Shown piece by piece: positions 4,926-60,971 of a DNA stretch of 64,000 bases. The translations under genes were made by a program, and so were the position numbers. Within the stretch, counting starts at the first letter, position 1; each line of letters opens with the position of its first letter. The DNA comes from an uncultured virus (IMG/VR IMGVR_UViG_3300032006_000004) (Duplodnaviria > Heunggongvirae > Uroviricota > Caudoviricetes), in the IMG/VR virus record IMGVR_UViG_3300032006_000004. One strand, written 5' to 3'. The notes under the pieces were generated by a model, which was not told where the DNA came from, searched no databases, and saw only the letters and a program-made list of their open reading frames with translations.

Positions 4926-7900
4926 ATGGCTCTCCCAGAAAAATTCTCACATAACCAGGATCATCCTCAAGTTTATACTCCTCAACAAGCCAAAAAATAT
5001 CATTACACTCCTCAGATAGCTAAACAACTTACTAGAGATGCCATGTATAAGGATCTCGGTTTAGGTGCTGACACGGAAGTCGCTAAGACTTCCCCTTTGT
5101 TTGATCCAAGACAATTTGCTCTTCCTTCGGCTCCGACGAAGGAAAGCAATCCTGTTTTTGATATCCCAATATTGGGTCCTGCGTTGGACTTGTTGGACAC
5201 TCCGAGGGCTGGAATTGTTTCAGCTATTAAAGAGTTCGGAGATATTTTCGATGATGAAGAAAGTTTTTCTCTGGGGGATTGGTGGGAACAGACTGGTGAC
5301 AACATCTTCATGGGAGAGGTGTTGCGTGATTGGGGAGTTGATCTTCCTGGGCCTTTGGATTTTGCTCTTGGGTTGACGTTAGATATTGCGTTTGATCCTT
5401 TGACGTATTTGTTGCCGTTGGGTGCGTGGGCACGAGTAGCTACGAAACCTCAGATGGTAAAACATTTGAAAGATGCCGCTAACGCAGCAAAATACGGAAA
5501 AGTTAAGGATGCAGCTAAAGCAACAAGAATGGAGGATGCTGCTGCACGAGTAGCTGAACGAGGCATCTTTGCTGCAGGTAAAGATGTCTTAGAAGAACTT
5601 GGATTGCCTACTGCAATAAAGTTCTCAGTTCCTCTTACTGGGCGCATAGGTCAAGGAATATTTGAACGACCACTAAGGAACATTCCTGGGGTTGGTCAAA
5701 GGTATGCTGCTTGGGCAAATGCGAAACGTGTAGGCCAACTTAAACCAATCAACACTGAAGTAGTTGATTTGGTTGATAAAGCTGGTCGTCCTCTTAAAGC
5801 ATTAGATGATGCGGCCATACAGACAAGAGTTCTTAAAGCTGTTAATGAGTTAGACGCAGCTAAACGTGCTGGAACTACAAAACAAGTTGCAGAACGTATT
5901 GTTACTCGTGCTCCCAAAACAGGTGAACAGGTTGTTAGGTCTGCTCGGACAGCCCAAAGAATGCCGATTGAAGCACCGTTTAAGCTTCCTATTGGGTTTG
6001 GTGTTTTAGCTGTTGTTGCTGGGCTTCCTGGCAAGGCTATGGGGCAAGCCCAAAAATCGAAAATGGTAAACACCCTTAGCGAAGGTTTGTCTACTCGTTT
6101 TCATTTGAATCAAATGTATCGCTCTGGTGATATAAACCAGATCGAAAACGCATTGTGGCTAGAAGGCGCAGCTAACCGTGGTCTTATTAAAGACAATGTT
6201 TTTAGAACTAAACACACGCAGGAGCTTGGCAATATAGCTAGGACTGCCCGAGAAGCTGATATCGACTTTGACGATATCTTTCGGGGCGCTAACGAAAAGA
6301 TGGGTAGCGAAGCTGCAGGTCGTGTCAACGTGTTGTTGGGTCCTGTAGCTAAAGGTGGTAGCCAAGAAGTCCAAGACATAGTTGTGCGTTTGCAGAAATG
6401 GTTTGATGAAGTTCTGAGGACGTATAACGAGGCTTTGCCTTGGCAGGATGATCTTCCTGGGCTGTTATCTGAGATGTATGTCACTCGTCAGATCCATGGG
6501 AAAGACCTTGATCTTGTTTACAAGAACGCTAAAAGCGTTCGGGTGCAAGATTTAGAAGGGCTTTCAGGAAGTCCTTTTAAGAACCGTGAACTTGTTTTGC
6601 CTGACGAAATTAAAGCGCAAGCTGCTGATGGTTATGTTCCTGCGGCGGAACAAACAAGGATTGCATCTCAATATGGGATGACTTTTGAAGAAGTCCTTGA
6701 TGCAGGTTTGCCTGTGCAGGTAACAACGACGGATGGAAGAGTCTTACGTTCTCATTTCATGGGAGAAGGTTTTCTTCCTTACGATCAAGGCGGCAGTGTT
6801 CTTACCCAGATGGATACGATAGGTACTCGTAATCTGGGTTCTGATTATCGCAAACTATTTACAGAAGACGCTAATTTGGCTCTAAGTAAATATTTGCAAA
6901 TGATGGGCGAAAACATTCGTGCTCAGTCCATTGTTGGTGATCTGTCTCAAGCTGGGATCATTGTTAAAGCTAACGATGCAGGTTTAGCTTCACGTTATGT
7001 TGGTCGCAAAGTTGCTGCAGATATTCAGGATGCTAAAGGCGCAGTTAAGAAAACGCAGAGAGCAAAACAAAGGATAGAGAAGAGAGTTGCTGCTGCTGCG
7101 AGAGTTATTTCTAAATATGCGGAAGAGCCGATAGATGAGCTTGTTGCTGCTCAACCTAGGAACCGTAAAGGTTCAGGGACGATGCGGCCTCGAACTGCCG
7201 CAGCGGTTGATGAGTTAGCAAACATTGAAGCTCAAATGGTTGACGTTGAGAGTGCGCTTACTGCTTTGATAGAAGGCACTGCAGATAATTTGACTGCAGG
7301 CGCTAGACGCTTGTTGGCTTCTGGAGATCCTGAGCAGATAAGAATTAAAGGACAGTTTGGTCCGAAGCTTCAACGTGCAGTACCTCCTGAGGGGACTGCT
7401 AAAGAACAGCGTGCTCTTAGGAAAGCTCAAATCGCTGAAGAAGATATTGCTAGTGCTACAGAAGAATTAGTTAAAATTCGCGAAGACATTCATCAGCTTA
7501 TGAAAGCACATGGTGAGCTACAAATACGGATGAGCCGAGCAGGTGCTGGGACTAATCAAGAGTTTGTTGCTGAAGTTCAAGCGATGGGAGAATATCTACA
7601 GCTTTACGCTGAAGATATTGAAAGAATCGCTCAAAATTATGTAGCAAATGTTTTAGAGTTATCTGAGAATGTTCAAGCTGCTCGAATATTGAGCGAGCTA
7701 GGGGAAGGATTGTTTGGAGACATTCAAGTCTTTAAACGTAATCCTTCGGTGGCGTTAGAAGACAAGCTTGACGCTGCTAGAAACACTCTTAAGGAAACTG
7801 AAGCAGGTCTTACACCTTTGCAAACTGTTGATGTTCCTCTTGGTGGGGGGTCTGAAACTAAAGCGATTGTGAATGCTTACAAAGAAGCTAATCCTGATTG

Positions 7901-10900
7901 GGCTTCTAGTTCTTCTATGACCATCGTATCTTCTGGTGGTCAAGTGACCCTAAAGAATGTTGGCGAGTTGCAACTTGAACGCTTCCAAAGGTTTGTTGAA
8001 GATTATGTTGCTCAAAGATCTGGGACAGCGGTCCAAAGCGGTAAGCCTTTACAGAAAGCTGCTCAAGAGCCTTCGACATGGAGTGGGGCCAAATCCGCAG
8101 GAGCGGAGAATTGGCCTGCACAGTACGTTGACGACGTTAATGGTTTGATCGCTGAAGAGTTAGCTGCTGGATCAACTGTAAAGTTTTCTACTGGTCCGTC
8201 AAAAGCTGTGGGGGTTACGGGAGGCAGGGTTCGTCCTACTGATGGTGGGTTGACTGAGTTTGGTGGAGAATCATTCACTATCAGTAAGCGTTCTGATGCT
8301 GAGTGGGTTGTGAATGTTGACGGTGACGAGATCCCTATTACGGGACCTCGGGCTTCTGCTACTACGGGAAAGAACAGCGGTGAGCAAGGGCTTGTTGTAT
8401 GGCTTCCTCGTCAGCAGCGTTCTATTTATTTTAATCCAACTCCTAAAGCTGGGACTTACGCTCAGAATGTTAAGAAGGGTTCTAAGCAGCAAGTTACTGC
8501 ATCTCGAAATGTTGGCAAGAAGATTGAAGATGCTTTAGATCAGAGAGCCACAAATATAGAGAAACAAGAACAGCTTATTGCTAAAGAGCAACGACGAGTA
8601 GAAGAACTTAGACAGCAATTTGAAGGAACTATTTCTAGGAATGTGTACGAGCATTATCGTTTAGCCCAATTTGCTGGGTCAGAGGCTGTTAGCCCTGTTC
8701 CTGCAAAGTCGGTAGTTGAACGTGTTGCGGTAAGGATGCCTGCTAGGGAAGTTCCTGCTCCTCCTACTCCTAAGGTTCAAAGAAGAGATCGTCCTGTTAA
8801 TAGTGGCGGTGTTCATCGTTTGGCTGATGGGGCGATAGAAGTTGATGGGCCTAAGGGTTCGAGGGTTCGTTTGACTGGTCAGCAAGCAGAGCAGTATTTA
8901 GCTGATCGTGCTGCAAGGATGACTGCGAGAGGAGAGCCTGCTGCTCAAATGTCTCCTCGCATGGAGCCAGGTGGCGTTGTTGAGCGTGATGTGTTTGCTG
9001 TGAATGCTCATACTGACGAGTTGTGGGTTTATGCTGATTCTGGTGTTCCGACACCTAAAAGCTGGTATTACGGATTGGAAGAACCTCCTGTTGGGAGTGG
9101 GCCTAAAGCTGAAACGACGTTGGGGAATGTGGATCGCCCTTTGTTTCAGGTTCGTCCAACGGACGAGTCTTACAGACTTGCAGATGGAACTGAAATTCGT
9201 GTTTATGAAGCTATTGAAATGCAACCTAAGTCAACGAGCAGGTTTGATCTAGTAGATCAGGTCATAGACGAACCTATGTCAATAGGACTCCCAGGAGGCG
9301 GCTCTATTCCAGTTCCTCGCCCCGATGTGCCTGTCTACAAGAGGGCGAGGTCTGCTGATCGTCAGTTCCGTTCTCGGCAAGCTAAGAACGGTTGGGTTTA
9401 CTTAGACGACTTTGATGCTGTCGATGCGTTGGAAGCAGGAACCTATGTTCCTCCTTCCCCGAAAATGCCGAAGCGTACTACTGCTGGTGAACAGAAAGTA
9501 ATAGAACAAATATTTTCTTCTGAGCCTTATAGGGAGTGGATCAAGTTGGCTCAGGAAGTTCGTAGGCTTCAAACAGATTTGTTTGAGGCAGAGAAGTTCT
9601 TGTTGAGCAATATGAATGCTCCTCAAGCTGTGATTGAAAATGCTACTCAAAGAAGCGTTCAAGCTGTTGAACAAATTCTTGATGCAAGAATTACAGCTTT
9701 AGAGGATCAGATTCGTGCTGGGGTTAAGGGTAAGGCTGGGGCTGTTAAGAACAGAGAGACTGTACGTCAGCTTCAAGCTCGGAAAGAATATTTGGAAGAA
9801 CAGAAAGTTAAGGTTCTTCAAGAGGTAGATAATATTCGTGAGTGGTTGGCTGAAGTTGTTCCTGAGCTACGGGATGCTTTGCAAACTACGAAGATTGATG
9901 AGGCGCAGCTAGCTGTTGTTGAGGCTGGCATTGCTTGGCAGCAACAATATATTCGTAATTTGTCTCTAGATCTTCAAAGAACTTTGGATGATGTGCAAGC
10001 TGGCACTGTTAAGCGGATGGACGCTGCACTCAATCAAAAAGAAGCATTAAAAGTATTACGGAATGCTAGAGAACGAGCCAATCTTTCTGCAGCTTATGAA
10101 GAATATGTTGAAGATTATTTAATTACTGGTTCTACTTTAGGTAAGAGTTCTGAGAGATCTAGTCGAACTCGTCAGCACTTAAAGGGCTATCAGCTTGTAG
10201 GGGCTACTGATGAAACAGTAGAGCTATTTGAAGCTGCGTTTGAGTCGATGGCTAGATTGCGTGATCCTATTCGTACTAAAGAATTTATGACTAAGTACGA
10301 CAAAGTAATTAACTATTGGAAAGCTCAAGCTGTCGCAACTCCAGGTTTCGTTTTCCGTAACCTTCTTGGTGGTACTTGGATCAATAACCAAATTGCTGGT
10401 GTGCCTGTGAGCTATCAACTTCGCATAGACATTATGCGAAGGAAAGCTTTGAAAGTTGCTGCTGAAGATGGACGGCAAGGCGATGTGGCTTACGGAGCGA
10501 GGAAAATAGCTGCGGAAGGCAAGTCAACTAAAGCTGGGTATGGCTTAATGAATGTTGAGCCTGCCGAGTGGGATGTCATGGCTGACTGGGCAGAAACTGG
10601 TATGGGTAATACTGGTATCACTTCGATGGAAGTCAACTCAGCTATTAACGACATGGGAATGAGTTGGCGAGAAGCAGGAACAATTAACCCAGTCAGTAGA
10701 GATTTCTATTTGTTTGCGGCTATTGGTCGTCTTAACCAGCGAGCAGAGTTCACACTTCGTGGTTCTCTCGCTCATCACGTAATGATGAATGGTGGCAGCA
10801 GAGAAGAAGCTCTAAACGCTGTATACAAATATCATTTCGATTACGGCAACCTCACTGCCTTAGACCAAAAAATTAAAAGAGTTATCCCATTCTGGACATG

Positions 10901-11585
10901 GCAGAAAAACATTCTGCCTGTCCTTCTTGAATCATTCGGTAAACGACCTCAAGCTTGGGCAAGACTTGTTCAAGTCAAAGGTGAACTTGAACTGACTTCA
11001 GACAAAGAAGGATTAGTTCCTGACTACTTCGGAGAGAACATGGCAATTAGGTTGCCATTTACTGCAGGCGGCAATCGTGTGTATGCCATGCCTGATCTTC
11101 CTTTCAGGGACCTTGCCAGATATCTGAAGTCTCCCACTTCTCCTGCGAGAAGTTTGATTGAAGGTGCTCTTCCTCATTACAAGTTACCTATCGAGTTGTG
11201 GGCTAAGAAGCGTACGTTTGCTGACATACCGTTCACTGGCAGATACCAGCAAGTACCTATAGCTATTGAAAAACTTCCTGGGGCTATGCAGTTGCTTGGT
11301 GCTTTTGGTAAAGCAGAGAAGAATAAAGCTGGTCAGTGGAAGATGCGAGATCAAGACATTTACATTATTGAACAGTTGATGCCTATTCTTGGTCGTGCCC
11401 GTCGTTTAGCTCCTAATGAGGAAGCTAAACAAAAAAGACTTATCACTACTTATCTTTCAACTTTCCTTGGTTTGGGTGTAAGGACAAACACTCCTCAGGA
11501 AAAACGAAACCAACTTATTAAAGATAGGATCAAGTATTCTCAAGATATGAGAGATGTTCGGGACCTTATGGGCAGAAGCGTATAA
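4926..11585 (+). CDS. Large internal virion/DNA-ejection protein (2219 aa)
   Basis: Last structural gene before endolysin; C-terminal FDY..L...E..I.RVIPF.TW motif; homologue 44873..50521. Confidence 0.65.
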   Translation: MALPEKFSHNQDHPQVYTPQQAKKYHYTPQIAKQLTRDAMYKDLGLGADTEVAKTSPLFDPRQFALPSAPTKESNPVFDIPILGPALDLLDTPRAGIVSAIKEFGDIFDDEESFSLGDWWEQTGDNIFMGEVLRDWGVDLPGPLDFALGLTLDIAFDPLTYLLPLGAWARVATKPQMVKHLKDAANAAKYGKVKDAAKATRMEDAAARVAERGIFAAGKDVLEELGLPTAIKFSVPLTGRIGQGIFERPLRNIPGVGQRYAAWANAKRVGQLKPINTEVVDLVDKAGRPLKALDDAAIQTRVLKAVNELDAAKRAGTTKQVAERIVTRAPKTGEQVVRSARTAQRMPIEAPFKLPIGFGVLAVVAGLPGKAMGQAQKSKMVNTLSEGLSTRFHLNQMYRSGDINQIENALWLEGAANRGLIKDNVFRTKHTQELGNIARTAREADIDFDDIFRGANEKMGSEAAGRVNVLLGPVAKGGSQEVQDIVVRLQKWFDEVLRTYNEALPWQDDLPGLLSEMYVTRQIHGKDLDLVYKNAKSVRVQDLEGLSGSPFKNRELVLPDEIKAQAADGYVPAAEQTRIASQYGMTFEEVLDAGLPVQVTTTDGRVLRSHFMGEGFLPYDQGGSVLTQMDTIGTRNLGSDYRKLFTEDANLALSKYLQMMGENIRAQSIVGDLSQAGIIVKANDAGLASRYVGRKVAADIQDAKGAVKKTQRAKQRIEKRVAAAARVISKYAEEPIDELVAAQPRNRKGSGTMRPRTAAAVDELANIEAQMVDVESALTALIEGTADNLTAGARRLLASGDPEQIRIKGQFGPKLQRAVPPEGTAKEQRALRKAQIAEEDIASATEELVKIREDIHQLMKAHGELQIRMSRAGAGTNQEFVAEVQAMGEYLQLYAEDIERIAQNYVANVLELSENVQAARILSELGEGLFGDIQVFKRNPSVALEDKLDAARNTLKETEAGLTPLQTVDVPLGGGSETKAIVNAYKEANPDWASSSSMTIVSSGGQVTLKNVGELQLERFQRFVEDYVAQRSGTAVQSGKPLQKAAQEPSTWSGAKSAGAENWPAQYVDDVNGLIAEELAAGSTVKFSTGPSKAVGVTGGRVRPTDGGLTEFGGESFTISKRSDAEWVVNVDGDEIPITGPRASATTGKNSGEQGLVVWLPRQQRSIYFNPTPKAGTYAQNVKKGSKQQVTASRNVGKKIEDALDQRATNIEKQEQLIAKEQRRVEELRQQFEGTISRNVYEHYRLAQFAGSEAVSPVPAKSVVERVAVRMPAREVPAPPTPKVQRRDRPVNSGGVHRLADGAIEVDGPKGSRVRLTGQQAEQYLADRAARMTARGEPAAQMSPRMEPGGVVERDVFAVNAHTDELWVYADSGVPTPKSWYYGLEEPPVGSGPKAETTLGNVDRPLFQVRPTDESYRLADGTEIRVYEAIEMQPKSTSRFDLVDQVIDEPMSIGLPGGGSIPVPRPDVPVYKRARSADRQFRSRQAKNGWVYLDDFDAVDALEAGTYVPPSPKMPKRTTAGEQKVIEQIFSSEPYREWIKLAQEVRRLQTDLFEAEKFLLSNMNAPQAVIENATQRSVQAVEQILDARITALEDQIRAGVKGKAGAVKNRETVRQLQARKEYLEEQKVKVLQEVDNIREWLAEVVPELRDALQTTKIDEAQLAVVEAGIAWQQQYIRNLSLDLQRTLDDVQAGTVKRMDAALNQKEALKVLRNARERANLSAAYEEYVEDYLITGSTLGKSSERSSRTRQHLKGYQLVGATDETVELFEAAFESMARLRDPIRTKEFMTKYDKVINYWKAQAVATPGFVFRNLLGGTWINNQIAGVPVSYQLRIDIMRRKALKVAAEDGRQGDVAYGARKIAAEGKSTKAGYGLMNVEPAEWDVMADWAETGMGNTGITSMEVNSAINDMGMSWREAGTINPVSRDFYLFAAIGRLNQRAEFTLRGSLAHHVMMNGGSREEALNAVYKYHFDYGNLTALDQKIKRVIPFWTWQKNILPVLLESFGKRPQAWARLVQVKGELELTSDKEGLVPDYFGENMAIRLPFTAGGNRVYAMPDLPFRDLARYLKSPTSPARSLIEGALPHYKLPIELWAKKRTFADIPFTGRYQQVPIAIEKLPGAMQLLGAFGKAEKNKAGQWKMRDQDIYIIEQLMPILGRARRLAPNEEAKQKRLITTYLSTFLGLGVRTNTPQEKRNQLIKDRIKYSQDMRDVRDLMGRSV

Positions 11586-15320: not shown

Positions 15321-16285
15321 CTGTCATCACCTGGAATGTCACTCTCGTAATATTCTCGGACCAGTCCGCATTGGGGGTCCATGAAATAGTCGATGGGTGG
15401 GTTGGTTACATGGCATGGCGGCCTCTTGTTTTTGCAGAGATCTAACGACACTGATACGGAATGAATCCGTCGTTCAACGTCAGATAGTTTCGGATTGTCT
15501 CGTTGACGGAACACATTCAACTGCAGAATTGCGTATTCATCTGCGTTGAATTTGCCGTCGTCCATTCCTCTTGACTGACCCCGAGTGGAACCTTTGCCTG
15601 ACTGATGGATAAGCCCCACTGGAAGATTCTCTGTTTCAGCCCATTCCTTTAACCCTTTAAGAACAGTAGATACTCCTTCGTATCCTGCTGCGCCTGGAAG
15701 TTGTTCAAGGAAATCGACCATGACGAATCTGGGTTTAGCTTGCCAGTAGTCCTCGCATTCACGCATCGCTTCTGACATGTCAGAGAACGATAAAGCGTTT
15801 GGGAATATCTTAATCCTGTTTAAGAACCCATCTTTGGCTTCTCGGATCTCGTTGAGGACAACTTCGTCTTCTGTGCGTAAGGCTTCCTCTACTTCAGCTA
15901 AGTTCCGCTGATATAGCAGGGCATACAACTTAGAGACAACAAGAATTTCTGGTTCATCTGGCGTGTAGATGACACCATGAAAGTCTGGGTCTTCTAAGAG
16001 GTTGCGTGCCATGGACGAGAGGATGACTGCGGACTTGCCGCTGTGTGCTCTGCCTGTGACAACGAGTACGTCGCTAGGCCAAACGCCTCGCATCTTCTGG
16101 TCTATGTCGTTAAGACCTAGATAGAAGCAGTCGTGGCTTCCTTTGGCGTATTCGACCCACCGCTCTACGGCGTCAGAGGTTGGTCTAAAAAATTTGTATT
16201 GGCTCTCTCCCTCGGGGAGATCGTGCCCTTCAAGAAGGGCGTCGATCTCCTCCGTGGTGAGGGCGACTGCTCCGCCCTCCTCCAT
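15308..16285 (-). CDS. DnaB-like (SF4) helicase
   Basis: Walker A GRAHSGKS, Walker B VMVDFLE, LIHQ, KNK. Confidence 0.85.
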   Translation of the reverse strand: MEEGGAVALTTEEIDALLEGHDLPEGESQYKFFRPTSDAVERWVEYAKGSHDCFYLGLNDIDQKMRGVWPSDVLVVTGRAHSGKSAVILSSMARNLLEDPDFHGVIYTPDEPEILVVSKLYALLYQRNLAEVEEALRTEDEVVLNEIREAKDGFLNRIKIFPNALSFSDMSEAMRECEDYWQAKPRFVMVDFLEQLPGAAGYEGVSTVLKGLKEWAETENLPVGLIHQSGKGSTRGQSRGMDDGKFNADEYAILQLNVFRQRDNPKLSDVERRIHSVSVSLDLCKNKRPPCHVTNPPIDYFMDPQCGLVREYYESDIPGDDRWVE

Positions 16286-17043
16286 TAGTTGCCCTTATAG
16301 GCGAACTCTTGGAGTTCTTCTCGTCGGGCGAGCCAGTCCCATTCGATGGCATCGTCTTGGGTTTGTCCAGAAGCTTGGTCCCAGACTTTGAGGGGGACAT
16401 TGCTGTCTCCATCATTTACCCAGATGCCTACGTCACGGGCAACTTGCATTCCCAGACGGGCGAGTGCATCTTTAGACACTGAGAAGTTCGGAAAGTTCTT
16501 CCCTGTCTTCGTTACGTCTGTAGTGCCATCTGCTTTTTCTTTCACTTCGTACACCTTGATTGTGCCGCCGTTCTCGTCGGCCCATTCGTTAGGTTGAAAT
16601 GCCAGAAGGTTGAACGCTGTCTGGTTTTGTTCAGCGTTCTTACCCAAGCAGAAGTCAACTCGCTTGTATACACGCCCAGTCACCCTGCCTCCTGCTGGAG
16701 CAGCTTGCGCTGGTGCAGGAGCGGCAGCTACTGATGTGGCTGTCGGGCCACTCGGAGCGGCCTGCGTGGGGGCGCTTGCTTGACTATCTGAAGACCTGGA
16801 AACGCCGCTTTTCAGGCGACGCATCACAACCCCATCGGGAGACAGATCTATTTCCTGTCCCGATTGGCGAAGGACTTCCGTCTTCACAGTTTCAAACAAG
16901 GCGGTGGCTTCGGCAAGAATGCCTTCGTCACCCATGGACTCAGGGACGCTGCGCTCTATGGAGAGCGTATAGTCCGCTGTTTCATATGGTGCTTCACTTA
17001 CTTTTTGGGTGAAGCTGACTGTTAGCTTTGCTGTATCAGTCAT
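16285..17043 (-). CDS. Replication-module protein (possible SSB/recombination factor) with Ala/Pro linker
   Basis: Between exonuclease and helicase; conserved with 55082..55801. Confidence 0.5.
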   Translation of the reverse strand: MTDTAKLTVSFTQKVSEAPYETADYTLSIERSVPESMGDEGILAEATALFETVKTEVLRQSGQEIDLSPDGVVMRRLKSGVSRSSDSQASAPTQAAPSGPTATSVAAAPAPAQAAPAGGRVTGRVYKRVDFCLGKNAEQNQTAFNLLAFQPNEWADENGGTIKVYEVKEKADGTTDVTKTGKNFPNFSVSKDALARLGMQVARDVGIWVNDGDSNVPLKVWDQASGQTQDDAIEWDWLARREELQEFAYKGN

Positions 17044-17061
17044 ATTTTCCTTTCTCCCTGA

Positions 17062-17829
17062 TTACCAAGGATTCTCTCCGAGGTGTTCGCCTCGGCATTT
17101 GCCTGCCTGCCAGACAGGACACCATTTAGGGGAGCAGTGCCAGCCTCCCCAGTTCATAGGCCATGGTGTTTGGTTCGACATAATCGTCGGCACCATTGAC
17201 CAACACAATTCCGTAAATGCCATCTTATCCTTATCGGTACGCACAATAGGGATCATTTGCACTTTGCCATTTACCAGTACACATAACACGAAGTCTTCTG
17301 TGTCAAACGCCAAACAGTAAGCGTGACTTTGTATGTCCCAACGCTTCTTCTCCCAAGGTTCGTATTCTCGGTTGGGATTCTTCCAATCCCATATGGCTCC
17401 AGAAGCGTCAATCCAGTCAGCGGTACCAGTCAGTATCAAGTTCACGTTGTTTCTTACCCCTAGGGATAACTCAAACGATTTCTCTATGCCAACAGGATTG
17501 AGGTCTGGCATCACTTCTCTGTGCCACACTTCGACGTTCGCTAAAGCAACGTCTACGATTTTCTCGTAGCTGTGTCGCCAGACTTCTATCTTCGGTGCTT
17601 CTTCAGCTATATATGTTTCAGCAATGTCTAATAGTTCATCGACAGTTGGCAACGTGTCTTCGTTCATCATGTGTTCGCCATAGGTTTCTATGGCGTGATG
17701 AACTGCGTTGCCCCTCAGTAGATCTGAGGTTTCTTTTTGGCTTACAAGTTTGAATCGCTCTTGTCTTGCTTGCTCAGGGCATCGCAAGAAGGTGTTGATC
17801 CAACTTTGTCTTAATCTAATTTCAATCAT
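17062..17829 (-). CDS. Cas4/RecB-like PD-(D/E)xK exonuclease with 4-Cys cluster
   Basis: RCP, GNAVH, GTAD, WDWK, QSHAY, C..KWC......C. Confidence 0.85.
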   Translation of the reverse strand: MIEIRLRQSWINTFLRCPEQARQERFKLVSQKETSDLLRGNAVHHAIETYGEHMMNEDTLPTVDELLDIAETYIAEEAPKIEVWRHSYEKIVDVALANVEVWHREVMPDLNPVGIEKSFELSLGVRNNVNLILTGTADWIDASGAIWDWKNPNREYEPWEKKRWDIQSHAYCLAFDTEDFVLCVLVNGKVQMIPIVRTDKDKMAFTELCWSMVPTIMSNQTPWPMNWGGWHCSPKWCPVWQAGKCRGEHLGENPW

Positions 17830-17962
17830 ATTTCTCCCATCTCCCTTTTACCCCTAATGTGGGTGCCCAGCAGGGAGAGGAACTGGGCACCCACAAGATT
17901 AAATGGGGGGTGACCCTTTGGGGGGTCACCCCCCATTATAAGACTTACAAGGTGCACGTCAA
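17827..17962 (-). promoter_or_regulatory. Promoter (TTGACG-N16-TATAAT) followed by two hairpins; second loop complementary to the SD of the exonuclease gene
   Basis: Stems 17902-17937 and 17858-17895; equivalent architecture at 57080-57220. Confidence 0.65.
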
Positions 17963-18390
17963 GCTTTCGCATTTTCTAAATACACGGCTGCGTTAAGAAG
18001 ACGGTCTGTTTCTTCTCTCATCCAACCGATACCACGGTTACAGGTATTGCAAAGTAGCCCTCTTACTTTTCCAGTGAGATGGCAATGATCCACTACTAGC
18101 AGTTCAGAAGTGGGATGCTCGCTGTCAGCAGACTGACAGATAGCACACTTACCTTCCTGTTCCTTAAACATGCGGTCATAGTCTTGGGGAGTTATCCCGT
18201 ATCGGTGCAAAGTTTTCTTTCTGCGCCATTCAGGTCCCCGTTTGCGTTCGTAGTCACGCATGGCTTGATTGTGGCAGGTACGACAGCGTGAACGTACGCC
18301 GAGTTTGCCTGTTGATTGTTTATGGAAATTGGTGAGTGGCTGAGGGTTCTCCTCAGGACACTCTTCGTTGTAACAAGTTTTAGTATTCAT
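17959..18390 (-). CDS. Endonuclease VII-type HNH nuclease (homing-endonuclease-like)
   Basis: YGIT..DY..M...Q.GKCAIC...LVVDHCH.TGKVRGLLC..CN.G.G. Confidence 0.9.
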   Translation of the reverse strand: MNTKTCYNEECPEENPQPLTNFHKQSTGKLGVRSRCRTCHNQAMRDYERKRGPEWRRKKTLHRYGITPQDYDRMFKEQEGKCAICQSADSEHPTSELLVVDHCHLTGKVRGLLCNTCNRGIGWMREETDRLLNAAVYLENAKA

Positions 18391-22279: not shown

Positions 22280-22343
22280 CTGAATAAGCCATGAGGAACA
22301 CCAAACTTACTGTTCCAGTAAGTCTGGTGTTCCCGAGTCTCAT

Positions 22344-23327
22344 TCAGACCTGAACGAGTTGGCGTGCAGCCCTATCAGTGAGTGGCATTGACCCGAATAG
22401 CAGACGGTCAAGGTGCCGTCCTTGTTTCGTGCCACCACGCACCTGTTGGACGTGCTGCTCATATCCCTGTACAGCCATGAGCGCACCCCACTTGGTTTCC
22501 CTGATGCCGCCATCAAGGTCATCGTGGTAGTAACGGGCAGTTATCTTGTCGAAGGTTTTATCCCAAGACGTTTGGCTCCTGCCCTCATCCTCTGGACGTT
22601 GACCCAACAGACTCCTAGTTAGGTCACCGAAATTGCCAGCGGTGTAGCTCTCGTTGATAAGCCGTTCTACTTGCTCATCGAGATGTTGTTGCAGCTTGGC
22701 TGCCTCAACGAACGAGTCGATAGCCCATTGCAGATAGCTAGTGGCATGACGAGTGTGCTTGATAGACCATGAAGCCTGCACACCTAGCACGTAGGCAGCG
22801 AATGTGTTTGAACACACCACCACTCCGATGGTTGGACGGCCTGAAGCGGCAATCGTCCCATCATGTGCATCAGTCAGTGTGAAGTATTTATGGATATCGC
22901 TGTAGCCCTCAATCTTTAGAGGCGAACCCATCTCCAGTGTCACGTATGCCTTTCGACCGTGATTAAGGGTGCCCTTGGATGCAACTCCAGCGGAGAAACC
23001 GTGATCTAAAAGTTTCTCTACAGCGGCATCCATCTCATCATATTGAGTGATGCCTCTGCCCTCGGTTACTCCCACATTTAGTGGGAACCCATTGTCGTCA
23101 CGACGAATGACGAAGCCATTATTTACGTCCCATTCGGAAACAGGTGTGTAGATAATCTCCCCGTCAATCATGTCTTGGACATACAGTTCTTGGCGGTTGG
23201 CTTGGAATTGCCATGGATTCTCTGCGTACTCCTCTGCGGAGAGCAGGTGACCATAGGTGATCCCTTTGCCATGCCAAGCTGTATTGGCGTAGACCGCTAG
23301 GTCATCGCCGTAGATTTCAGCAGACAT
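22344..23327 (-). CDS. DUF932-family phage/plasmid protein
   Basis: AWHG.G, G.L..G..., AHDG, VVC.NT, KHT, T.WGA..AV..Y. Confidence 0.85.
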   Translation of the reverse strand: MSAEIYGDDLAVYANTAWHGKGITYGHLLSAEEYAENPWQFQANRQELYVQDMIDGEIIYTPVSEWDVNNGFVIRRDDNGFPLNVGVTEGRGITQYDEMDAAVEKLLDHGFSAGVASKGTLNHGRKAYVTLEMGSPLKIEGYSDIHKYFTLTDAHDGTIAASGRPTIGVVVCSNTFAAYVLGVQASWSIKHTRHATSYLQWAIDSFVEAAKLQQHLDEQVERLINESYTAGNFGDLTRSLLGQRPEDEGRSQTSWDKTFDKITARYYHDDLDGGIRETKWGALMAVQGYEQHVQQVRGGTKQGRHLDRLLFGSMPLTDRAARQLVQV

Positions 23328-23432
23328 GCTGACTCCTTACTTGGTTGTTTATGTTGTTAATGGGAGACTTACTGGAACAGTAAGTCGCTCATCGTGGGAT
23401 GAAGGGGCGTCGAACCCCTAACCACTAGAACC

Positions 23433-23461
23433 ATTCTATCATCCCATACAGGTAATGTCAA
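23433..23461 (-). promoter_or_regulatory. Sigma-70/SigA-type early promoter TTGACA-N17-TAGAAT
   Basis: Near-consensus hexamers upstream of the DUF932 gene, with a palindrome site at 23367. Confidence 0.8.
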
Positions 23462-23500
23462 GTACCCGCGTACCCATTTTGTCAAGGTACACAGGACTCG

Positions 23501-23836
23501 TCACTTGTACCTGCCACAAGTCCACAAGTCCCACCCCCCACGAGTGTTCTCATGTATGTAGTGAGCCATCCATGTTGACTGCACTACTTCGTATCGTTTC
23601 GGCCAGTGTTTTTCAAACACATGGCCCCAATAGTGTTCGTTTATCTGAAACAATCCATGATCTACCCCGTTGTAGGCACGAGGATTGTGCAGTGACTCGC
23701 ACCACGCAACTCCCAGCGCCCTCACGCAGTCGTCTGCAAAATATTCGCAAACGACTTCAGGGATTTCGGCATTCGGTGGCTCATAGTTCACCGATGCGAA
23801 GTCAAGGATTGACCAGATAGCCAACCAAAGATTCAT
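23501..23836 (-). CDS. Secreted lytic transglycosylase-like (SLT/Rpf-like) protein
   Basis: Hydrophobic N-terminus; CES...P.A...D.GLFQIN...W; W..WTC. Confidence 0.75.
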   Translation of the reverse strand: MNLWLAIWSILDFASVNYEPPNAEIPEVVCEYFADDCVRALGVAWCESLHNPRAYNGVDHGLFQINEHYWGHVFEKHWPKRYEVVQSTWMAHYIHENTRGGWDLWTCGRYK

Positions 23837-25377
23837 CCATCCCCCAGTAGCATTAGACCCAAACGAATATCCGACAGCCCTTGATACAGAGCCTCATCTG
23901 CCCGATTCAGGTCATTGTTCTCCCTCAGGTAGTCAAGAATCTCAAGTATGTGAAATAGCTGATGTTTGGTTATCTGCACCTTTCGAGTCTTGTCCTCGCA
24001 GTCGCCATCGGCGCAGTCACCGAAGCCACCACAGATGTTGCATATTTCTTCGTCGAATTTCAACATTATCGTAAAGGGTGATCCTCTCTGTCTGCCCCAT
24101 ACAACATCCACACTGCCTGAGGCAGCTTCAAGTCATATGACAAGGCATGACACCAGCCGTCATACCCATAGTTGTTGAAGTCCTTGACAGCAACAACAAA
24201 GGGTGCATCAGGAAACGCACACATCTCAGGTGGGCGTTTCACCAGTATCCTGAACAACCCATCAGTAGGGTCGTCGGGATACATCTTGTCCATCTCAATG
24301 ATTGGGTAACCATTGGATGTGATTGGTTTATCGTGTTCCAACACAGTCTCTCTCCCATTCTCCAGTGTTTGGATTCATTACATGCGTGATCCAACCAGTC
24401 TTGGTTCGATTGTCACGCTTGGTTTCTCGTTGCCATTGGTTGCGGCGATGTTTCCGCAACTTCTTTCTATTCTGAGCAGTCTTAGACATTGCTCTCCCCT
24501 TTCTTAATGAGGTCCTGTTCAGCTTCCTTAGACCAGTCGTACGGTTTCCCGAACTCTGTGCCCATGTACATGATGTCCAGCATCTCCTGAGTGCGCCGCA
24601 CCCAGTACTCATGCTGCTCCATCTCTTTCTTGCGAGCGTTGTATGCCCATATCCCAACGAATACGCAAACACACAGAAGTATGAATGCTGCACCCATCGG
24701 TGTTATCCAAGGCCACGTAGTCATGGCTCTCCTCTCCTTGTTACCAGCCAGACATATGGCCGAACGCATCGTCCGACCATCGAATGGCATCGTTGAATGT
24801 TTCTATCTTCTGGTACTTCAATTCATCTACCAGATCTTTATTCCTGACTGCTTCAATGCATGATCCATGACGAATCTTGATTGCAACAGTCAATGCGAGA
24901 TAGAACGTCGTACGTTCGTTCTCGCTAGCGTTAGGGTTGTCCTTCAAGTCTTTCAACTTGAAGTGCCCATTCTCAATCCAGATCACTGTAAATATCTCCC
25001 TTTCTGTACTTACTGGAACAGTAAGATCATGTGCTGTATTGAAGCGCCTCTTGTCTGGCAGCTTCAAGTTCAGCGGTTGTAGGAGGATGACCTAAACAGT
25101 CAAGCTCCATGAACCCTTTGTCACTCGTCCACAACGCCACATGATATGTGCGGTGTAGATCAACGAGTCCTTGTCGGGTAATGAACCTGTATGGTTCGTG
25201 ATTACAAGATAGCAACGGATTAACCGATACGTCCGTGTCTGGGTGAACGACAAAGAACTGATCGTTCGTTTCAAACAGAGTCCGCACAATCTCCCAATCT
25301 CCAGTAGGCCAGCTAAAGGAGGCTAAGAGAAGTACGTCGGAACCTCGGGTAGTCCGTGCGTTACTGCGTGGCAGCAT
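23833..25377 (-). other. Cluster of small early hypothetical ORFs
   Basis: Packed - strand ORFs 23833-24111, 24066-24344, 24482-24790, 24741-25067, 25027-25377. Confidence 0.55.
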
Positions 25378-25448
25378 CGCTCTCCCCTCTGGAACTTACT
25401 GGAACAGTAAGTTCGCTCCGCAGGTGGACTCTCCACCCACCAACAACT

Positions 25449-25476
25449 ATTTTACCATACCCACAAATAAAGTCAA
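25449..25476 (-). promoter_or_regulatory. Early promoter TTGACT-N16-TAAAAT with TG extension
   Basis: Upstream of the 25377 ORF cluster, palindrome at 25394 downstream. Confidence 0.65.
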
Positions 25477-25655
25477 GTCATTCTTGACGCCAGTAGTCAC
25501 TGCCCACGGCACCTCCCCATTCACTATCAGAACTACAGAGCACACGGCACACGGCACTATTCATTCACTCATTCACTATCAGACATAAACACAAACAAAA
25601 AAAAGAGAATGAATCTTTCGATCCATTCTAAGTGACTTACTGGAACAGTAAGTAC

Positions 25656-25689
25656 AAAAAAAAGGGGAGGGATCTTTCGATCCCTCCCC
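25656..25689 (-). terminator. Rho-independent terminator
   Basis: GGGGAGGGATC-GAAA-GATCCCTCCCC-T8; degenerate second copy at ~25597-25629. Confidence 0.9.
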
Positions 25690-25708
25690 CACTTACTGGA
25701 ACAGTAAG

Positions 25709-26461
25709 TTAGGCCGTAGCCTTAGCAGCTTCCTGCTCTGCTACTGTCTCTTCGCAGTTGGCAACCATGGTTGCAGTATTCGCAAGGAAGTTGCGAATAG
25801 TGTCAGCATGCTTCACGCCGCCAGCAGCATCAGTTGCTAGACGCTTGTTCAGAGCTTCTAGCTGTTGTGCAGCAGCTTTCACCAGAGCATCAGTAGATAC
25901 CTTAGGTGCGCGATTCCTACCGCCTCCATTCTTGGTATTACCTTTACCCTTACCCTTACCGCTACCGTTCTTATTACCCGAACGCTTAGACTCTTCAGGC
26001 TTGCTAGCGTTAAAGGCTTTACTGACTTTCTCTGCCAGATCACTAGTCAACCATTCAGCGTTACCCTTAGATTCTTTCCTAGCATCTCTCAGGGTTTGAA
26101 TAGCAGCAGAACGGCCACCATGGGTATCAACTGGATCAAGCGCAGGCTTAATCTTTGCCAGACAATCCATCGAACCAACTAGCTTTTTCTCTGCCATGGT
26201 TGCAGTGATGACTTTAGTCTCCACTAGCCAGTGCAGAGCAATGCCAGCAGCATTCCAACTAGACCAACGCCTATCGGTAAAGTCTGGGCCGATTGACTTC
26301 TGAAGTTGTGCTTTAACCTCTGACACCTCAGAGCGTCCTAGGTCTTTAGTTACTGCACCTAGGCTGTATGCCCAGTTCTGCATTGCTAGGCCAATAGTTA
26401 CCTTTAACTCGCCGTAAGAAGTTGTCAGCTTCTTAACGGTATTACTTATCTTCGTAGCCAT
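25709..26461 (-). CDS. First early gene: basic 250-aa protein of unknown function
   Basis: GGGAGG RBS; Lys/Gly-rich linker; palindrome sites on both sides; own terminator. Confidence 0.75.
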   Translation of the reverse strand: MATKISNTVKKLTTSYGELKVTIGLAMQNWAYSLGAVTKDLGRSEVSEVKAQLQKSIGPDFTDRRWSSWNAAGIALHWLVETKVITATMAEKKLVGSMDCLAKIKPALDPVDTHGGRSAAIQTLRDARKESKGNAEWLTSDLAEKVSKAFNASKPEESKRSGNKNGSGKGKGKGNTKNGGGRNRAPKVSTDALVKAAAQQLEALNKRLATDAAGGVKHADTIRNFLANTATMVANCEETVAEQEAAKATA

Positions 26462-26876
26462 AGTGGCTACCTCCCTATTGTTAGCGACTTACTGGAGCAG
26501 TAAGTCGGAGGGTCTGTCCCTCTGCTATCTAAGTTATGGATATGGGGACGGTACGCAAACGGTAGACCATATGCCTAGTTCATAGGGTTTGATAGCCCTA
26601 GTTCCTGGCCTATCCCTAACCCTTAGCCCCATTTACTAGGCCAATATGGGTAGAACCTAGGCCGTTCCTGCGCTACTGGCACCCTAACGAACCACGGAGA
26701 AGGGGAGGGGGGTACCCTAGGGGGGGTCCTGATAGTGGTCCCGTGTATGTATAGATATCAATATCCAGTGCGTTCAGTTTTTGAAACTTGGACGGGGGAG
26801 AGAGTGTTCTTTTTTGTTCTTTCCATGTATGCCTGTTACTGGAGAGGCGTTAGGGGCATACAAGGTAGGGAAAGGT

Positions 26877-26921
26877 GGGGGGGGAGGGGGAAACGCTTGG
26901 GGCGTTTCCCCCTCCCCCCCC
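26877..26921. repeat. 20-bp perfect inverted repeat of G/C tracts upstream of TerS
   Basis: G8-A-G5-AAACGC / GCGTTT-C5-T-C8 around a 5-nt loop. Confidence 0.85.
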
Positions 26922-26980
26922 CTACACTATACCCACAGTGTCCCACTTTCCCTCGCGGGACAACTAAACTTTAAATATAG
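26922..26980. promoter_or_regulatory. Divergent pair of GGGAC-N13/14-TRTAG late-promoter-like motifs upstream of TerS
   Basis: + strand 26957-26980, - strand 26944-26922; same motif at 2951, 12363, 30386, 32872, 42354, 51293. Confidence 0.65.
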
Positions 26981-39185: not shown

Positions 39186-39487
39186 TGCCTATTCAGATTC
39201 AATTCCGCCGAGGAACCCATGCCCAGTGGACGGCTGCTGACCCCGTTTTAGCTGACGGCGAAATGGCAATCCAAACTGACGCTGGTGGCGGTCAACCAGC
39301 CATGACCTTAAAGATAGGTGATGGTACTACGGCTTGGAGTTCGCTGGCTTACGGCGGACTTGTAGGCCCGACTGGACCGACAGGTCCTCACGGAACTTCC
39401 GTCAATAACCTTGACGGTGGCGAAGCGGCAACTAACTATGGAGGCATCGGAGCTACGGCTACTGGTGGAAACGCACAAGGAATATAA
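39185..39487 (+). CDS. Mtd_N/collagen tail protein
   Basis: IQFRRGT.AQW..ADPVLA.GE, KIGDG..AW. Confidence 0.8.
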   Translation: MPIQIQFRRGTHAQWTAADPVLADGEMAIQTDAGGGQPAMTLKIGDGTTAWSSLAYGGLVGPTGPTGPHGTSVNNLDGGEAATNYGGIGATATGGNAQGI

Positions 39488-39515
39488 ATGGCTGTACAGA
39501 TACAACTTCGACGAG
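39291..39515 (+). repeat. Near-identical direct repeat, copy 2
   Basis: Offset of 39290 from window start. Confidence 0.95.
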
Positions 39516-39967
39516 ATACCAGCACGAACTGGACCTCTGCTAACCCTACGCTCGCTCTTGGTGAGCTTGGGTTAGAAACTGATGGATACAAATATAAGAT
39601 TGGTGACGGCGCTACTGCGTGGACTTCTTTAAGTTACGCAGAGCTAGCTGGTACCGACATATTCACGATTAACGAGCAGACAGGTACCGCTTACACATTG
39701 GTTGGTGCGGACTCTGGCAAGCTTATTAAGATGACGAACGCTGCGGCGAACACTTTAACGGTGCCGCCAAGTTCAAGCGTCAACTTTGATATTGGAACAA
39801 CAATCAATGTTGTCCAATATGGTGCAGGTCAAACAACTATTGCCGCTGGCGCTGGTGTAACCATCTACTCGTACAACAGTGCGTTATCTATCACAGGTCA
39901 GTACGGTCAAGCTGTTCTTACCAAGTGTGACACTGATCTTTGGATTGCGGCAGGGCTTCTGAGCTAA
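39488..39967 (+). CDS. Mtd_N-domain tail fibre protein (homologue of 198..677)
   Basis: Same length (159 aa), highly similar. Confidence 0.8.
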   Translation: MAVQIQLRRDTSTNWTSANPTLALGELGLETDGYKYKIGDGATAWTSLSYAELAGTDIFTINEQTGTAYTLVGADSGKLIKMTNAAANTLTVPPSSSVNFDIGTTINVVQYGAGQTTIAAGAGVTIYSYNSALSITGQYGQAVLTKCDTDLWIAAGLLS

Positions 39968-55801: not shown

Positions 55802-55970
55802 TTCATCCTCCCTTTGGATGTTTGTCCAACAGACTTTTTTGCGAAGCCGATGATATTCCGACGGCTTGTATTCACGAATAATTGGTTTGATGCGTATTGG
55901 GAAATTGAACTTGCCCGCACAATAGCTTACATGAAAAGACATGAGTTCGCCCAACGGCCTACGGCACGTC

Positions 55971-56321
55971 TTAGTTGATAGTGAGCCTTCTCCCGCACGT
56001 CCACCATTTCCATCCCCCTGCCTCCCATATGTGGATTCCCATTTCTATGTTAGCATCATAATCGTAGCGTTGCGCCCAGCGCTCTTCCCCAAATACATCC
56101 GCCCAGAAAAAACGGTTGACTTGCATGACACCGTGGTCATCTGATTTTGAGTTTACGGCGGTGGGGCTCATCAGGCTTTCACACCATACGACCCCGATAG
56201 CGTTTTTGCATCCCCATTCTTCGTACTCGCATAGCGCTGCAGGGACTTCATGGTTGGGTGGTTCCACGTTGACTGAAGCGAAGTCCAAGATACCCCAGAT
56301 TACAAGCCAGACGTTTACCAT
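55971..56321 (-). CDS. Lytic transglycosylase-like protein
   Basis: Homologue of 23501..23836. Confidence 0.75.
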   Translation of the reverse strand: MVNVWLVIWGILDFASVNVEPPNHEVPAALCEYEEWGCKNAIGVVWCESLMSPTAVNSKSDDHGVMQVNRFFWADVFGEERWAQRYDYDANIEMGIHIWEAGGWKWWTCGRRLTIN

Positions 56322-57082
56322 GATTCTGGTTTCCCTTGTCCTAGGTGTTTGCCTCGGCATTTGCCGTCTTGCCAGACAGGGCACCATTTAGGGGAGCAGT
56401 GCCATCCTGTCCAGTTCATCGGCCAAGGCTTAATGTCGGCGGTGATGAGGGGAACGATTGACCAGCACAGATCTATGAAAGCTTTATGGTCTGCTTCGTT
56501 GCGTTCGATGGGAATGTGTTGATACTGACCATTGGCAAATACGGCAAGGTTAAACTTTTCTGCCCCTAATGCCCAACAGTAGGCGTGAGATTGGATATCC
56601 CAGCGACGCTTCTCCCACGGTTCGTAGAAACGTGAAGGATTTTTCCAATCCCATATCTCTCCAGACTCATCTTCCCAGTCGGCTGTGCCGCTTAGCCACA
56701 ACTCGACACCCTTGCGTTTCCCTATTTTCTTTTTGAAAGTACGCTCCACGGCACGAGGTACCCCAAGTTGAGGCCATACCTCGTCGTGCCACACAAGTAT
56801 GTTCGCTCGGCAAACGTCCACAATTTTTTCGTAGGAGTGTCGCCACTCCTCCACCATGTGAGCATTCTCGGCTATGTATTCATCAACCCAATCCAAGAGT
56901 TGGGGGGGATTCACTTTCACTATCGGAGAGGTCCCAGCCATCTCTATGGCATAATGCACAGCGTTTCCCCTCAGCAGATCCGAGGTTTCTTTTTGCTTGA
57001 CAAGACCTTCCCGTTCCTGACGTGCCTGTTCGGGGCAACGGAGGAAGGTACTTATCCAACTTTGTCTGAATGTGATTTTCAT
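56315..57082 (-). CDS. Cas4/RecB-like exonuclease
   Basis: Homologue of 17062..17829. Confidence 0.85.
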   Translation of the reverse strand: MKITFRQSWISTFLRCPEQARQEREGLVKQKETSDLLRGNAVHYAIEMAGTSPIVKVNPPQLLDWVDEYIAENAHMVEEWRHSYEKIVDVCRANILVWHDEVWPQLGVPRAVERTFKKKIGKRKGVELWLSGTADWEDESGEIWDWKNPSRFYEPWEKRRWDIQSHAYCWALGAEKFNLAVFANGQYQHIPIERNEADHKAFIDLCWSIVPLITADIKPWPMNWTGWHCSPKWCPVWQDGKCRGKHLGQGKPESW

Positions 57083-57220
57083 CCGCTTCTCCCTGCGGTA
57101 GTTATGGAGGTTGCCCTAAGCGCGGGGAGAAGTCACGCTCAGAGCAACCCCCTAGATCATTTCGGGTAAACCCCTTGAAGGGTTTACCCGAGTCTAGTGG
57201 GTAGATTACAAAAAAAGCAA
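57080..57220 (-). promoter_or_regulatory. Promoter-like TAGACT plus two hairpins; second loop pairs with the SD
   Basis: Stems 57162-57191 and 57109-57149. Confidence 0.65.
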
Positions 57221-57278: not shown

Positions 57279-57316
57279 GATCGCTCCCGTAGAAGATCTG
57301 TGTAGCTACACAGATC

Positions 57317-60935: not shown

Positions 60936-60971
60936 TGGAATCCTCCTTAAAAGATCTGTGTAGCTACACAG

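Follow-up and report, generated by a model that had tools for sequence, protein, structure and literature searches.

A conserved hairpin displaying an anti-Shine-Dalgarno loop ahead of the exonuclease gene of uncultured marine phages: a candidate leader for translational control

A stretch of 64,000 nucleotides from an uncultured virus (Caudoviricetes; IMG/VR IMGVR_UViG_3300032006_000004), referred to below as the window, carries a folded leader on its minus strand, directly ahead of a Cas4-like exonuclease gene. The question raised by this locus is whether the leader is a conserved RNA element, and whether its loop, which is complementary to the Shine-Dalgarno (SD) sequence of the exonuclease gene, forms an H-type pseudoknot that controls translation, as had been predicted from the DNA sequence alone. 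The 64-kb window consists of two related collinear phage genomes end to end, phage A at about 1-39290 and phage B from position 39291. In phage A the leader, the ribosome-binding sites (RBS) and the exonuclease gene comprise the following features.

17935..17962, minus strand: sigma-70-type promoter-like site TTGACG-16 nt-TATAAT (-35 at 17962-17957, -10 at 17940-17935), 11 of 12 consensus matches
17902..17937, minus strand: hairpin 1, a 15-bp G+C-rich stem with loop CCCAAA, starting within or right after the -10 hexamer
17858..17895, minus strand: hairpin 2, with arms TGTGGGTGCCCAG/CTGGGCACCCACA (13 bp and a U-G pair) and a 10-12-nt loop TTCCTCTCCCTG, found by folding and matched by covariance model R2 with 46.2 bits (E 1e-9)
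17872..17878, minus strand: loop heptamer TCTCCCT of hairpin 2 (anti-SD), matching AGGGAGA at 17846-17840 as its exact complement
17847..17857, minus strand: 11-nt linker separating hairpin 2 from the first SD-like box, read from the sequence
17833..17846, minus strand: ribosome-binding region, read from the sequence as AGGGAGA (17846-17840), T and GGGAGA (17838-17833), followed by AAT and the ATG (17829)
17062..17829, minus strand: PD-(D/E)XK (Cas4/RecB-like) exonuclease gene of 255 amino acids (PF12705, E 3e-13; phrog_69 exonuclease)
17047..17060, minus strand: RBS of the next gene, CAGGGAGAAAGGAA, forming a duplex with the loop of -17.7 kcal/mol versus -16.8 kcal/mol for the exonuclease gene's own RBS

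The promoter-like site was the best of only three found between positions 14000 and 22000. The two hairpins are separated by a 6-nt AU-rich spacer, and folding of the leader with RNAfold resulted in exactly these two hairpins, with a minimum free energy of -61 kcal/mol (z = -3.9) and none of 200 shuffled sequences as good. The layout given in the original prediction, a TATAAT followed by a 15-bp hairpin and a 13-bp stem with its loop, was correct in every detail on sequence reading and folding. The complementarity of the loop heptamer to the AGGGAGA box 11 nt downstream, likewise predicted, was found to be exact at the coordinates given. The loop of phage A can pair with both purine boxes, giving 11 bp with a 1-nt bulge (-16.8 kcal/mol). 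Its proposed match to the RBS of the next gene holds as well, apart from the 2-nt insertion by which CAGGGAGAAAGGAA differs from the loop complement CAGGGAGAGGAA.

Two other explanations of the leader were rejected. Hairpin 2 is not followed by a T-run, which rules out its reading as an intrinsic terminator or attenuator. An ATG inside the TATAATG of phage A opens a frame that ends at an ATGA overlap with the nuclease start; the model of an upstream open reading frame (ORF) or leader peptide was rejected because neither the positions of the starts nor their frames are conserved in 29 representatives. No conserved upstream ORF able to melt the stem was found among the same 29, and the leader is therefore not otherwise explained by an upstream ORF.

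In phage B the corresponding features are as follows.

57191..57220, minus strand: weaker promoter-like site TTGCTT-18 nt-TAGACT directly ahead of hairpin 1, found in the sequence by pattern match
57162..57191, minus strand: hairpin 1, 11-13 bp with loop TCAA, found by folding
57106..57152, minus strand: hairpin 2, a 19-bp stem that differs in sequence from that of phage A, with loop ACTTCTCCC, found by folding
57086..57093, minus strand: SD region GGGAGAAG, followed by CGG and the ATG at 57082; exact complement of the loop segment CTTCTCCC (57132-57125)
56315..57082, minus strand: exonuclease gene, its product 63% identical in amino acid sequence to the exonuclease of phage A

Both phages have the same leader layout with different stems, and their loops share a CU-rich core, each matching its own RBS. 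The linker between stem and SD in phage B is 12 nt long, and its leader folds with z = -7.5. When both strands of the entire window were scanned for hairpins with a CTCC loop and a stem of at least 10 bp, 20 matches resulted, two of which are alternative calls of one hairpin, compared to 7-21 matches in 20 simulated windows. Among these matches, only the two leader hairpins, with 14 bp at 17895-17858 and 19 bp at 57152-57106, are long perfect stems ahead of an SD and a start codon. There is one anti-SD-loop hairpin in each phage genome, solely at the exonuclease gene.

For the analysis of conservation, IMG/VR was scanned with a two-protein exonuclease alignment and the best 80 of 109 confirmed relatives were taken, with homologues of 52-100% amino acid identity (loci are cited by L numbers). 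Leaders with at least 100 nt upstream were available in 78 cases (76 loci and the two window copies), resulting in 52 distinct sequences. In 49 of these 52, a CUCC-containing loop near the start codon is closed by a hairpin stem of at least 13 bp; the leaders without such a hairpin are L044 and L051, which belong to one clade, and L073 (common to L074 and L076). The 49 leaders carry 36 distinct hairpin 2 stems of 13-21 bp, with three to six pair types at every stem position. The sequence is constrained in the loop, and a weaker constraint applies to the foot of the stem, which reads GGUUGGG.../...CCCAACC in many clades. The base of hairpin 2 is located 12-17 nt ahead of the start codon in most clades.

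A covariance model (R1) seeded on one clade recovered hairpin 2 in other clades. In alignment A7 (16 sequences) 98.7% of the cells were paired and 13 of 15 pairs were changed on both sides, a value reached by none of 500 shuffles; when the partner was slid, pairing fell to 38-46%. RNAalifold predicted 12 pairs, 11 of them compensatory, in alignment A8 (23 sequences aligned to model R2). Both alignments were fitted to a covariance model and are hence biased towards the structure; independent single-sequence folds agree with them. The clades of phage B, L058, L063-71 and L070 had weak R2 scores (E 0.03-0.65) and were therefore left out of the counted alignments, and the MAFFT alignments A2-A4, which were not structurally consistent, were not used for counting. 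The recurrence of hairpin 2 in relatives with freely varying stems, its covariation and the agreeing single-sequence folds establish it as a genuine conserved folded element. The strong covariation of its stem in A7 and A8 bears out the structural conservation that had been predicted from phage A. A scan of metagenomes gave 33 loci, the close ones of which repeat known clades; in the distant ones (27-35% identity; L108-L113) the nuclease gene lies inside an operon and no such leader was found.

Of the 48 distinct leaders with enough upstream sequence, 47 have a further hairpin upstream of hairpin 2, with a minimum of 9 bp and mostly 12-20 bp. These 47 include L053, in which the hairpin found is T-tailed and terminator-like and no counterpart of hairpin 1 is evident. 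Hairpin 1 of the relatives is mostly G+C-rich, and its loop mostly consists of pyrimidines followed by A's (CCAAAA, CTCAAA, CCAAA). In most leaders it starts no more than 3 nt from a TAnnnT hexamer (distance -3 to +1), which itself follows a TTGnnn hexamer at 16-18 nt. In L032, L044, L045, L058 and L061, a -35/-10 pair with better spacing is present 5-9 nt further upstream, from which transcription would start at the foot of hairpin 1. Hairpin 1 could act as RNA, as DNA or on read-through transcripts.

Additional hairpins were observed in some relatives. The L010-L031 clade (e.g., L010:2320-2452) carries a third, A+T-rich perfect hairpin of 14 bp with a 3-nt loop between hairpins 1 and 2, and L032, L045 and L048 have an additional G+C-rich hairpin between hairpin 2 and the SD.

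Next, the complementarity of loop and RBS was compared between the clades, with the helices anchored on CUCC in the loop and GGAG in the RBS. The loops of hairpin 2 read YCUCUCCCU or UUCUCCUUU, whereas those of hairpin 1 are of the CCAAA type. Contiguous loop-RBS helices of 6-13 bp were found in all 22 SD-bearing clade representatives (7 bp in phage A and 8 bp in phage B), so that the complementarity claimed for phage A holds in every SD-bearing clade. The pairing often extends past any SD consensus: in L061 UGUUAUUCUCCCU pairs with AGGGAGAAUAACA over 13 bp, and in L058 UGCUUCUCC pairs with GGAGAAGCA over 9 bp. Between L010 and L025/L026 (10 bp each) a change of G to U in the loop is met by a change of U to G or A in the RBS flank (G-U to U-G/U-A exchanges), and CUG with CAG in L064 is replaced by UUG with CAA in L065. 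In L061, L058, L032 and L063-65 it is the own RBS that gives the longest extended complementarity. Matched pairs of loop and RBS exceeded permuted ones both by extension, with 320 of 100,000 permutations as high for the 22 representatives and 739 of 100,000 for 11 deep clades, and by energy (48 of 100,000). The RBS of the next gene is strongly conserved in the relatives as well (GGGAGAAAGG). The loop is best described as an apparent anti-SD mimic whose flanks show some, although not decisive, adaptation to the own RBS.

These results suggest a leader that reduces or gates the loading of ribosomes on the first cistron, and possibly on the second as well, of an operon under strong transcription, a proposal for and against which we see the chances as evenly balanced. 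A host-type promoter would drive a replication-operon mRNA whose 5' leader holds the two stable hairpins, and the long, sequence-free stem of hairpin 2 would display the conserved CU-rich loop just upstream of the exonuclease RBS. There the loop would pair with the purine-rich RBS in competition with the 16S rRNA, its partner being the own RBS and possibly that of the next cistron too, and the nuclease would be made sparingly despite strong transcription of the operon. In phages A and B this pairing could be that of an H-type pseudoknot; for most relatives, either the lowest 3-6 bp of the stem would have to open or the loop would pair with a distant or separate RBS. We infer that RNA, not DNA, is the active form, that the pairing takes place in vivo and that it lowers translation.

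Several observations weigh against such a pairing with the own RBS. The permutation control with the RBS of the next gene was also significant (357 of 50,000), so that relatedness and a phage-wide SD style explain part of the permutation signal. Judged by duplex energy, the next gene's RBS is an equally good partner of the loop, the own RBS being the better one in 12 of 25 cases. In the tool-made alignment A9 (16 sequences), five of the eight pairs of the loop-SD helix are invariant, one is changed on both sides, and 6 of the 16 sequences are unpaired there. A linker of 0-6 nt stands next to a stem of 14-21 bp in most relatives, and nested refolding, in which a loop:SD hairpin replaces the stem, costs +3.5 to +27 kcal/mol. 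A transcription start 7 nt past the TAnnnT hexamer may lie inside the 5' arm of hairpin 1. Finally, five distinct leaders of a G+C-rich clade (L070, L075, L077, L079, L080) keep the CCUCUCC loop and have no SD ahead of the same ATG.

The relatives that miss part of the device also include the sixth distinct leader of the G+C-rich clade (L073, common to L074 and L076), which has neither SD nor loop motif, and L044 and L051, in which the hairpin is lost and a weaker, AAGGGAA-type purine box is found. These leaders would be consistent with selection for low nuclease translation, with the loop decaying after loss of the SD. The loops kept in the SD-less leaders may also fit a target elsewhere, as the next gene there has a strong AGGGAGAG-type RBS.

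The geometry bears most directly on the predicted H-type pseudoknot. It is plausible in phage A (11-nt linker, 13-14-bp stem) and phage B (12-nt linker, 19-bp stem) by a rule of about 0.5 nt of linker per bp, which is a rough A-form estimate and not a tool result. With a short linker (2-3 nt in leaders of the L061 or L010 type) and a rigid stem, the SD by the same estimate could reach the loop only on opening of the lowest 3-6 bp. A mismatch or bulge is present at the stem foot of several clades with short linkers (L010, L029); the stems of L061, L047 and L038 are perfect. The nested alternative hairpin was rejected as a general equilibrium switch because of its refolding cost. Geometry, refolding cost and the lack of a conserved upstream ORF together identify the conserved feature as an anti-SD loop on a rigid stem by the RBS, not as a fixed pseudoknot. 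Of the original prediction, the loop-SD complementarity (6-13 bp, 22 of 22) and a suitable geometry in A and B remain, whereas the linkers of 0-6 nt in most relatives and a loop-SD covariation that is modest and confounded by relatedness leave a static pseudoknot as the common form weakly supported.

The short linkers would bar pairing in cis in most clades, but not pairing in trans or over a distance. The leader, whole or cut by RNase E in its AU-rich spacers, might act as an anti-SD hairpin in the manner of the cuckoo/CcsR, RsaE or 6C small RNAs, its target being the next cistron at a distance of about 0.8 kb, another copy of the same mRNA (in a head-to-tail dimer) or other phage and host mRNAs. 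We consider this rather unlikely. A stable stem presenting a conserved loop is the usual design for antisense recognition, the next gene's RBS fits the loop equally well, and in the SD-less clade it is the sole remaining complement (-13.9 to -19.4 kcal/mol). The weak Rfam resemblances of the leader, far below gathering level, are to two-hairpin RNAs with C-rich loops (6C, 25.5 bits; ftsZ-DE, 26.8 bits), and cuckoo/CcsR RNAs consist of hairpins side by side, with variable stems and an anti-SD motif in the loop, which RNase E cuts from 3' or 5' untranslated regions (UTRs) (PMC4615179, PMC8034643). However, extended targets are not enriched elsewhere in the window: 12-mer complements of the two loops numbered 10 compared to 6.1 expected and 4 compared to 5.6 expected, which is chance level, and a genome-wide duplex scan did not single out RBSs as loop targets. 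The longest complementarity in L061, L058, L032 and L063-65 is to the own RBS, the element always lies directly ahead of this one RBS, and no terminator follows that would yield a discrete small RNA.

An mRNA stabiliser, an RBS insulator or a protein-binding leader that works without loop-SD pairing is about as doubtful. Here the hairpins would protect the 5' end, as in the ompA-type stabiliser hairpin, which lies only a few nt from the 5' terminus of its mRNA, or their loops would be bound by a protein, for instance ribosomal protein S1, a translational repressor of the phage or the nuclease, and the complementarity would be a by-product of a pyrimidine-rich recognition motif. Conserved loop motifs on free stems in both hairpins fit this explanation, as do the retention of the loop where the SD is absent and the position of the base of hairpin 2, in most clades 12-17 nt ahead of the start codon, which suits docking beside the SD. 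The invariant core of the loop-SD helix is uninformative on pairing. Loop-RBS helices of 9-13 bp past the SD core (L061, L058, L010/L025) and the excess of matched over permuted partners are left unexplained, though, and no RNA-binding protein was identified, the neighbouring small ORFs being without family matches.

A less probable variant of pairing beyond the own RBS is a phage-borne, UTR-embedded anti-SD antisense module in place of a cis pseudoknot, in which leaders would lock head-to-tail or the loop would reach the RBS of the second cistron. The dimer idea derives from the position of the SD at the foot of a rigid stem with its complement at the tip. If true, such pairing would provide dose-dependent, RNA-only feedback that sets the ratio of nuclease to partner protein.

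Least probable is a DNA-level element, with the inverted repeats serving as an origin (origins commonly adjoin helicase and primase genes), a hairpin for primase-helicase loading, or an operator or cruciform overlapping the promoter: hairpin 1 does overlap or abut the -10 in most leaders (-3 to +1), so that its full stem may escape transcription from this promoter, but free stem sequence, strict pairing and a conserved loop are typical of folded single strands and not of duplex sites, both the location of the element and its complementarity with respect to SD and start codon indicate mRNA, and the spacing of about 17-31 nt between loop motif and SD box is unsuited to a dimeric DNA binder.

The element lies at the head of an operon with the order exonuclease, 252-amino-acid gene, DnaB-like helicase and AEP-type primase in phage A. 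The identification of the first gene as a Cas4-like exonuclease heading a replication operon was confirmed by its PF12705 and phrog_69 matches and by the helicase and primase genes downstream. For the second gene neither a family match nor an informative Atlas neighbour was found. In phage B an additional ORF of about 138 amino acids lies between the exonuclease gene and the homologue of this second gene (55970-56315, minus strand), so that operon content differs between the two phages.

The start of the helicase gene (16257-16298, minus strand; L011:4058-4106 and equivalents) overlaps the preceding gene with TAATG/TGATG. Its first codons contain a conserved hairpin of 7-13 bp. The sequence after this hairpin, ...CCACCGAGGAGATCGATG, is similar to the leader's 3' half, and model R2 matches this site in many relatives with 18-22 bits (E 0.003-0.04). 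The hairpin may enforce translational coupling.

Directly upstream of the leader promoter, phage A carries a further small nuclease gene.

17959-18390, minus strand: endonuclease VII gene (PF02945), its stop codon overlapping the -35

At the equivalent position in phage B (57200-57320), one copy of an early palindrome was found at 57294-57317, together with a terminator-like hairpin with a T tail at about 57278-57243. The difference between the phages is an indel of a small nuclease gene adjoining the regulatory region. The palindrome belongs to a phage-specific set of perfect palindromes that occur in many copies in the early minus-strand regions (22305-26505 in A, 57282-63997 in B): ACTTACTG-NNN-CAGTAAGT with seven copies in phage A, and the core CTGTGTAGCTACAC with eight copies in phage B. 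The majority lie 6-12 nt ahead of the SD of a small ORF, and the sequences differ between A and B at equivalent places. Two copies in phage A flank strong T-tailed terminator hairpins (about 25709-25600). The palindromes could be operators, phage-specific promoters or RNA hairpins.

The repeat families of the two phages are 70-93% identical in nucleotide sequence at offsets of about 38.7-39.4 kb, and the first 292 nt of the window are repeated at 39291-39582 with 92% identity. On the plus strand phage A encodes terminase, portal, scaffold, capsid, an ORF of 2219 amino acids, endolysin and tail-fibre genes, and its minus-strand block consists of many small ORFs followed by the replication module. 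The 2219-amino-acid ORF among the virion genes (4926-11585, plus strand) takes up 17% of the phage A genome and had no PHROG family match at E 1e-5. A long G-rich tract with runs of 8-9 G lies at 26865-26930, where the early minus-strand block and the packaging genes of the plus strand diverge.

No near-identical DNA was found among the cultured phages of the phage collection, in which the exonuclease protein had a single distant match (28% identity). The capsid protein has only distant relatives (below 40% identity), many of them from phages of Alphaproteobacteria, which may be taken as a hint, not as evidence, of an alphaproteobacterial host. A prophage and host search of GTDB, with one genome per prokaryote species, gave 158 pattern matches, none of which was confirmed. 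The DNA of the window is present in marine plankton metagenomes. Parts of the leader region are carried by four metatranscriptome runs, as contigs only, for which carry-over of DNA is possible and from which strand, start and transcription cannot be read; one contig of run X16 spans 17589-17946 and thus both hairpins of phage A and 6 nt past the -10.

Translational control by leader RNAs is well studied in a few model phages. To our knowledge, little of it has been catalogued for the uncultured marine phages that dominate viromes. The leader offers a compact candidate RNA family outside Rfam, with sequence diversity sufficient for a seed alignment. With the complement at the tip and the target at the foot of a rigid stem, it poses the question of whether stem breathing, long-range pairing or dimerisation brings the two together. 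Long-range or intermolecular pairing would, if true, raise the significance of the leader, and confirmed pairing would make it a small, portable riboregulator part.

An Rfam search, proposed together with the original prediction, found no family at gathering level anywhere in the window (Rfam 15). The best sub-threshold matches were ftsZ-DE (RF02985; 26.8 bits, threshold 72.2) and 6C (RF01066; 25.5 bits, threshold 47). The int-alpA motif (RF02996) was not among the 36 Rfam matches with E up to 10 in 17780-17990; it has a junction, in contrast to the two simple hairpins of the present leader. A literature search found no described motif of this kind in marine phages.

The T4 gene 32 pseudoknot, to which the leader had been likened, lies well upstream of the RBS, which is unstructured. 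It is not known to pair with the SD, and it nucleates the cooperative binding of gp32, a single-strand-binding protein. Both are leaders of phage replication genes with a proposed pseudoknot and translational control, but the likeness is weak: the gene downstream encodes a nuclease and not a single-strand-binding protein, and the second helix would involve the SD itself.

In the E. coli rpsO operator and the preQ1-II and SAM-II riboswitches, the loop of a pseudoknot pairs with a downstream segment that contains the SD. The present loop likewise matches a downstream SD segment, and the geometry allows this pairing in A and B. The stem of 13-21 bp is far longer, however, the linker is too short in most relatives, and there are no conserved nucleotides beyond the pairing segments for a ligand or protein pocket.

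In the T-even leaders of I-TevI, e, soc and 49, the SD reportedly lies inside a stem, and a late promoter within the hairpin is said to give translatable transcripts. As in these phages, a folded leader ahead of a phage nuclease gene would hide or compete for the SD and keep a potentially harmful enzyme scarce or timed. The SD here lies 2-12 nt outside a very stable stem and is matched by the loop alone. No internal promoter was seen in the hairpin, the only sigma-70-like site being upstream of hairpin 1; phage-specific promoters are beyond this pattern search. The T-even RBS-occluding leaders and the SD-sequestering pseudoknots appear to be closest in function and differ in the location of the SD.

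The closest described architecture is that of the cuckoo/CcsR RNAs of Alphaproteobacteria. They consist of 2-4 adjacent hairpins of 24-50 nt with loops of 9-27 nt, each with CCUCCUCCC (PMC4615179); their stems vary by compensatory change, the loop motif is anti-SD, and some are cut from UTRs by RNase E (PMC4615179; PMC8034643). Adjacent hairpins, compensatory free stems and a C/U-rich anti-SD loop are shared with the present leader, and its hairpin 2 of 38-60 nt with loops of 6-20 nt lies partly within these size limits. The defining motif, CCUCCUCCC, was found in none of the leaders examined; in contrast to these RNAs, only hairpin 2 is anti-SD, and the element is phage-borne, lies directly ahead of an RBS and has no terminator. 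A loop resembling the cuckoo/CcsR anti-SD loops might, by analogy, sponge or silence host RBSs. The leader resembles both the RBS-sequestering phage leaders and the cuckoo/CcsR hairpins without being a member of either group. It represents a variant of leader RNA directed at an RBS that has so far not been catalogued, and its carriers are a clade of podophage-like genomes from uncultured marine phages.

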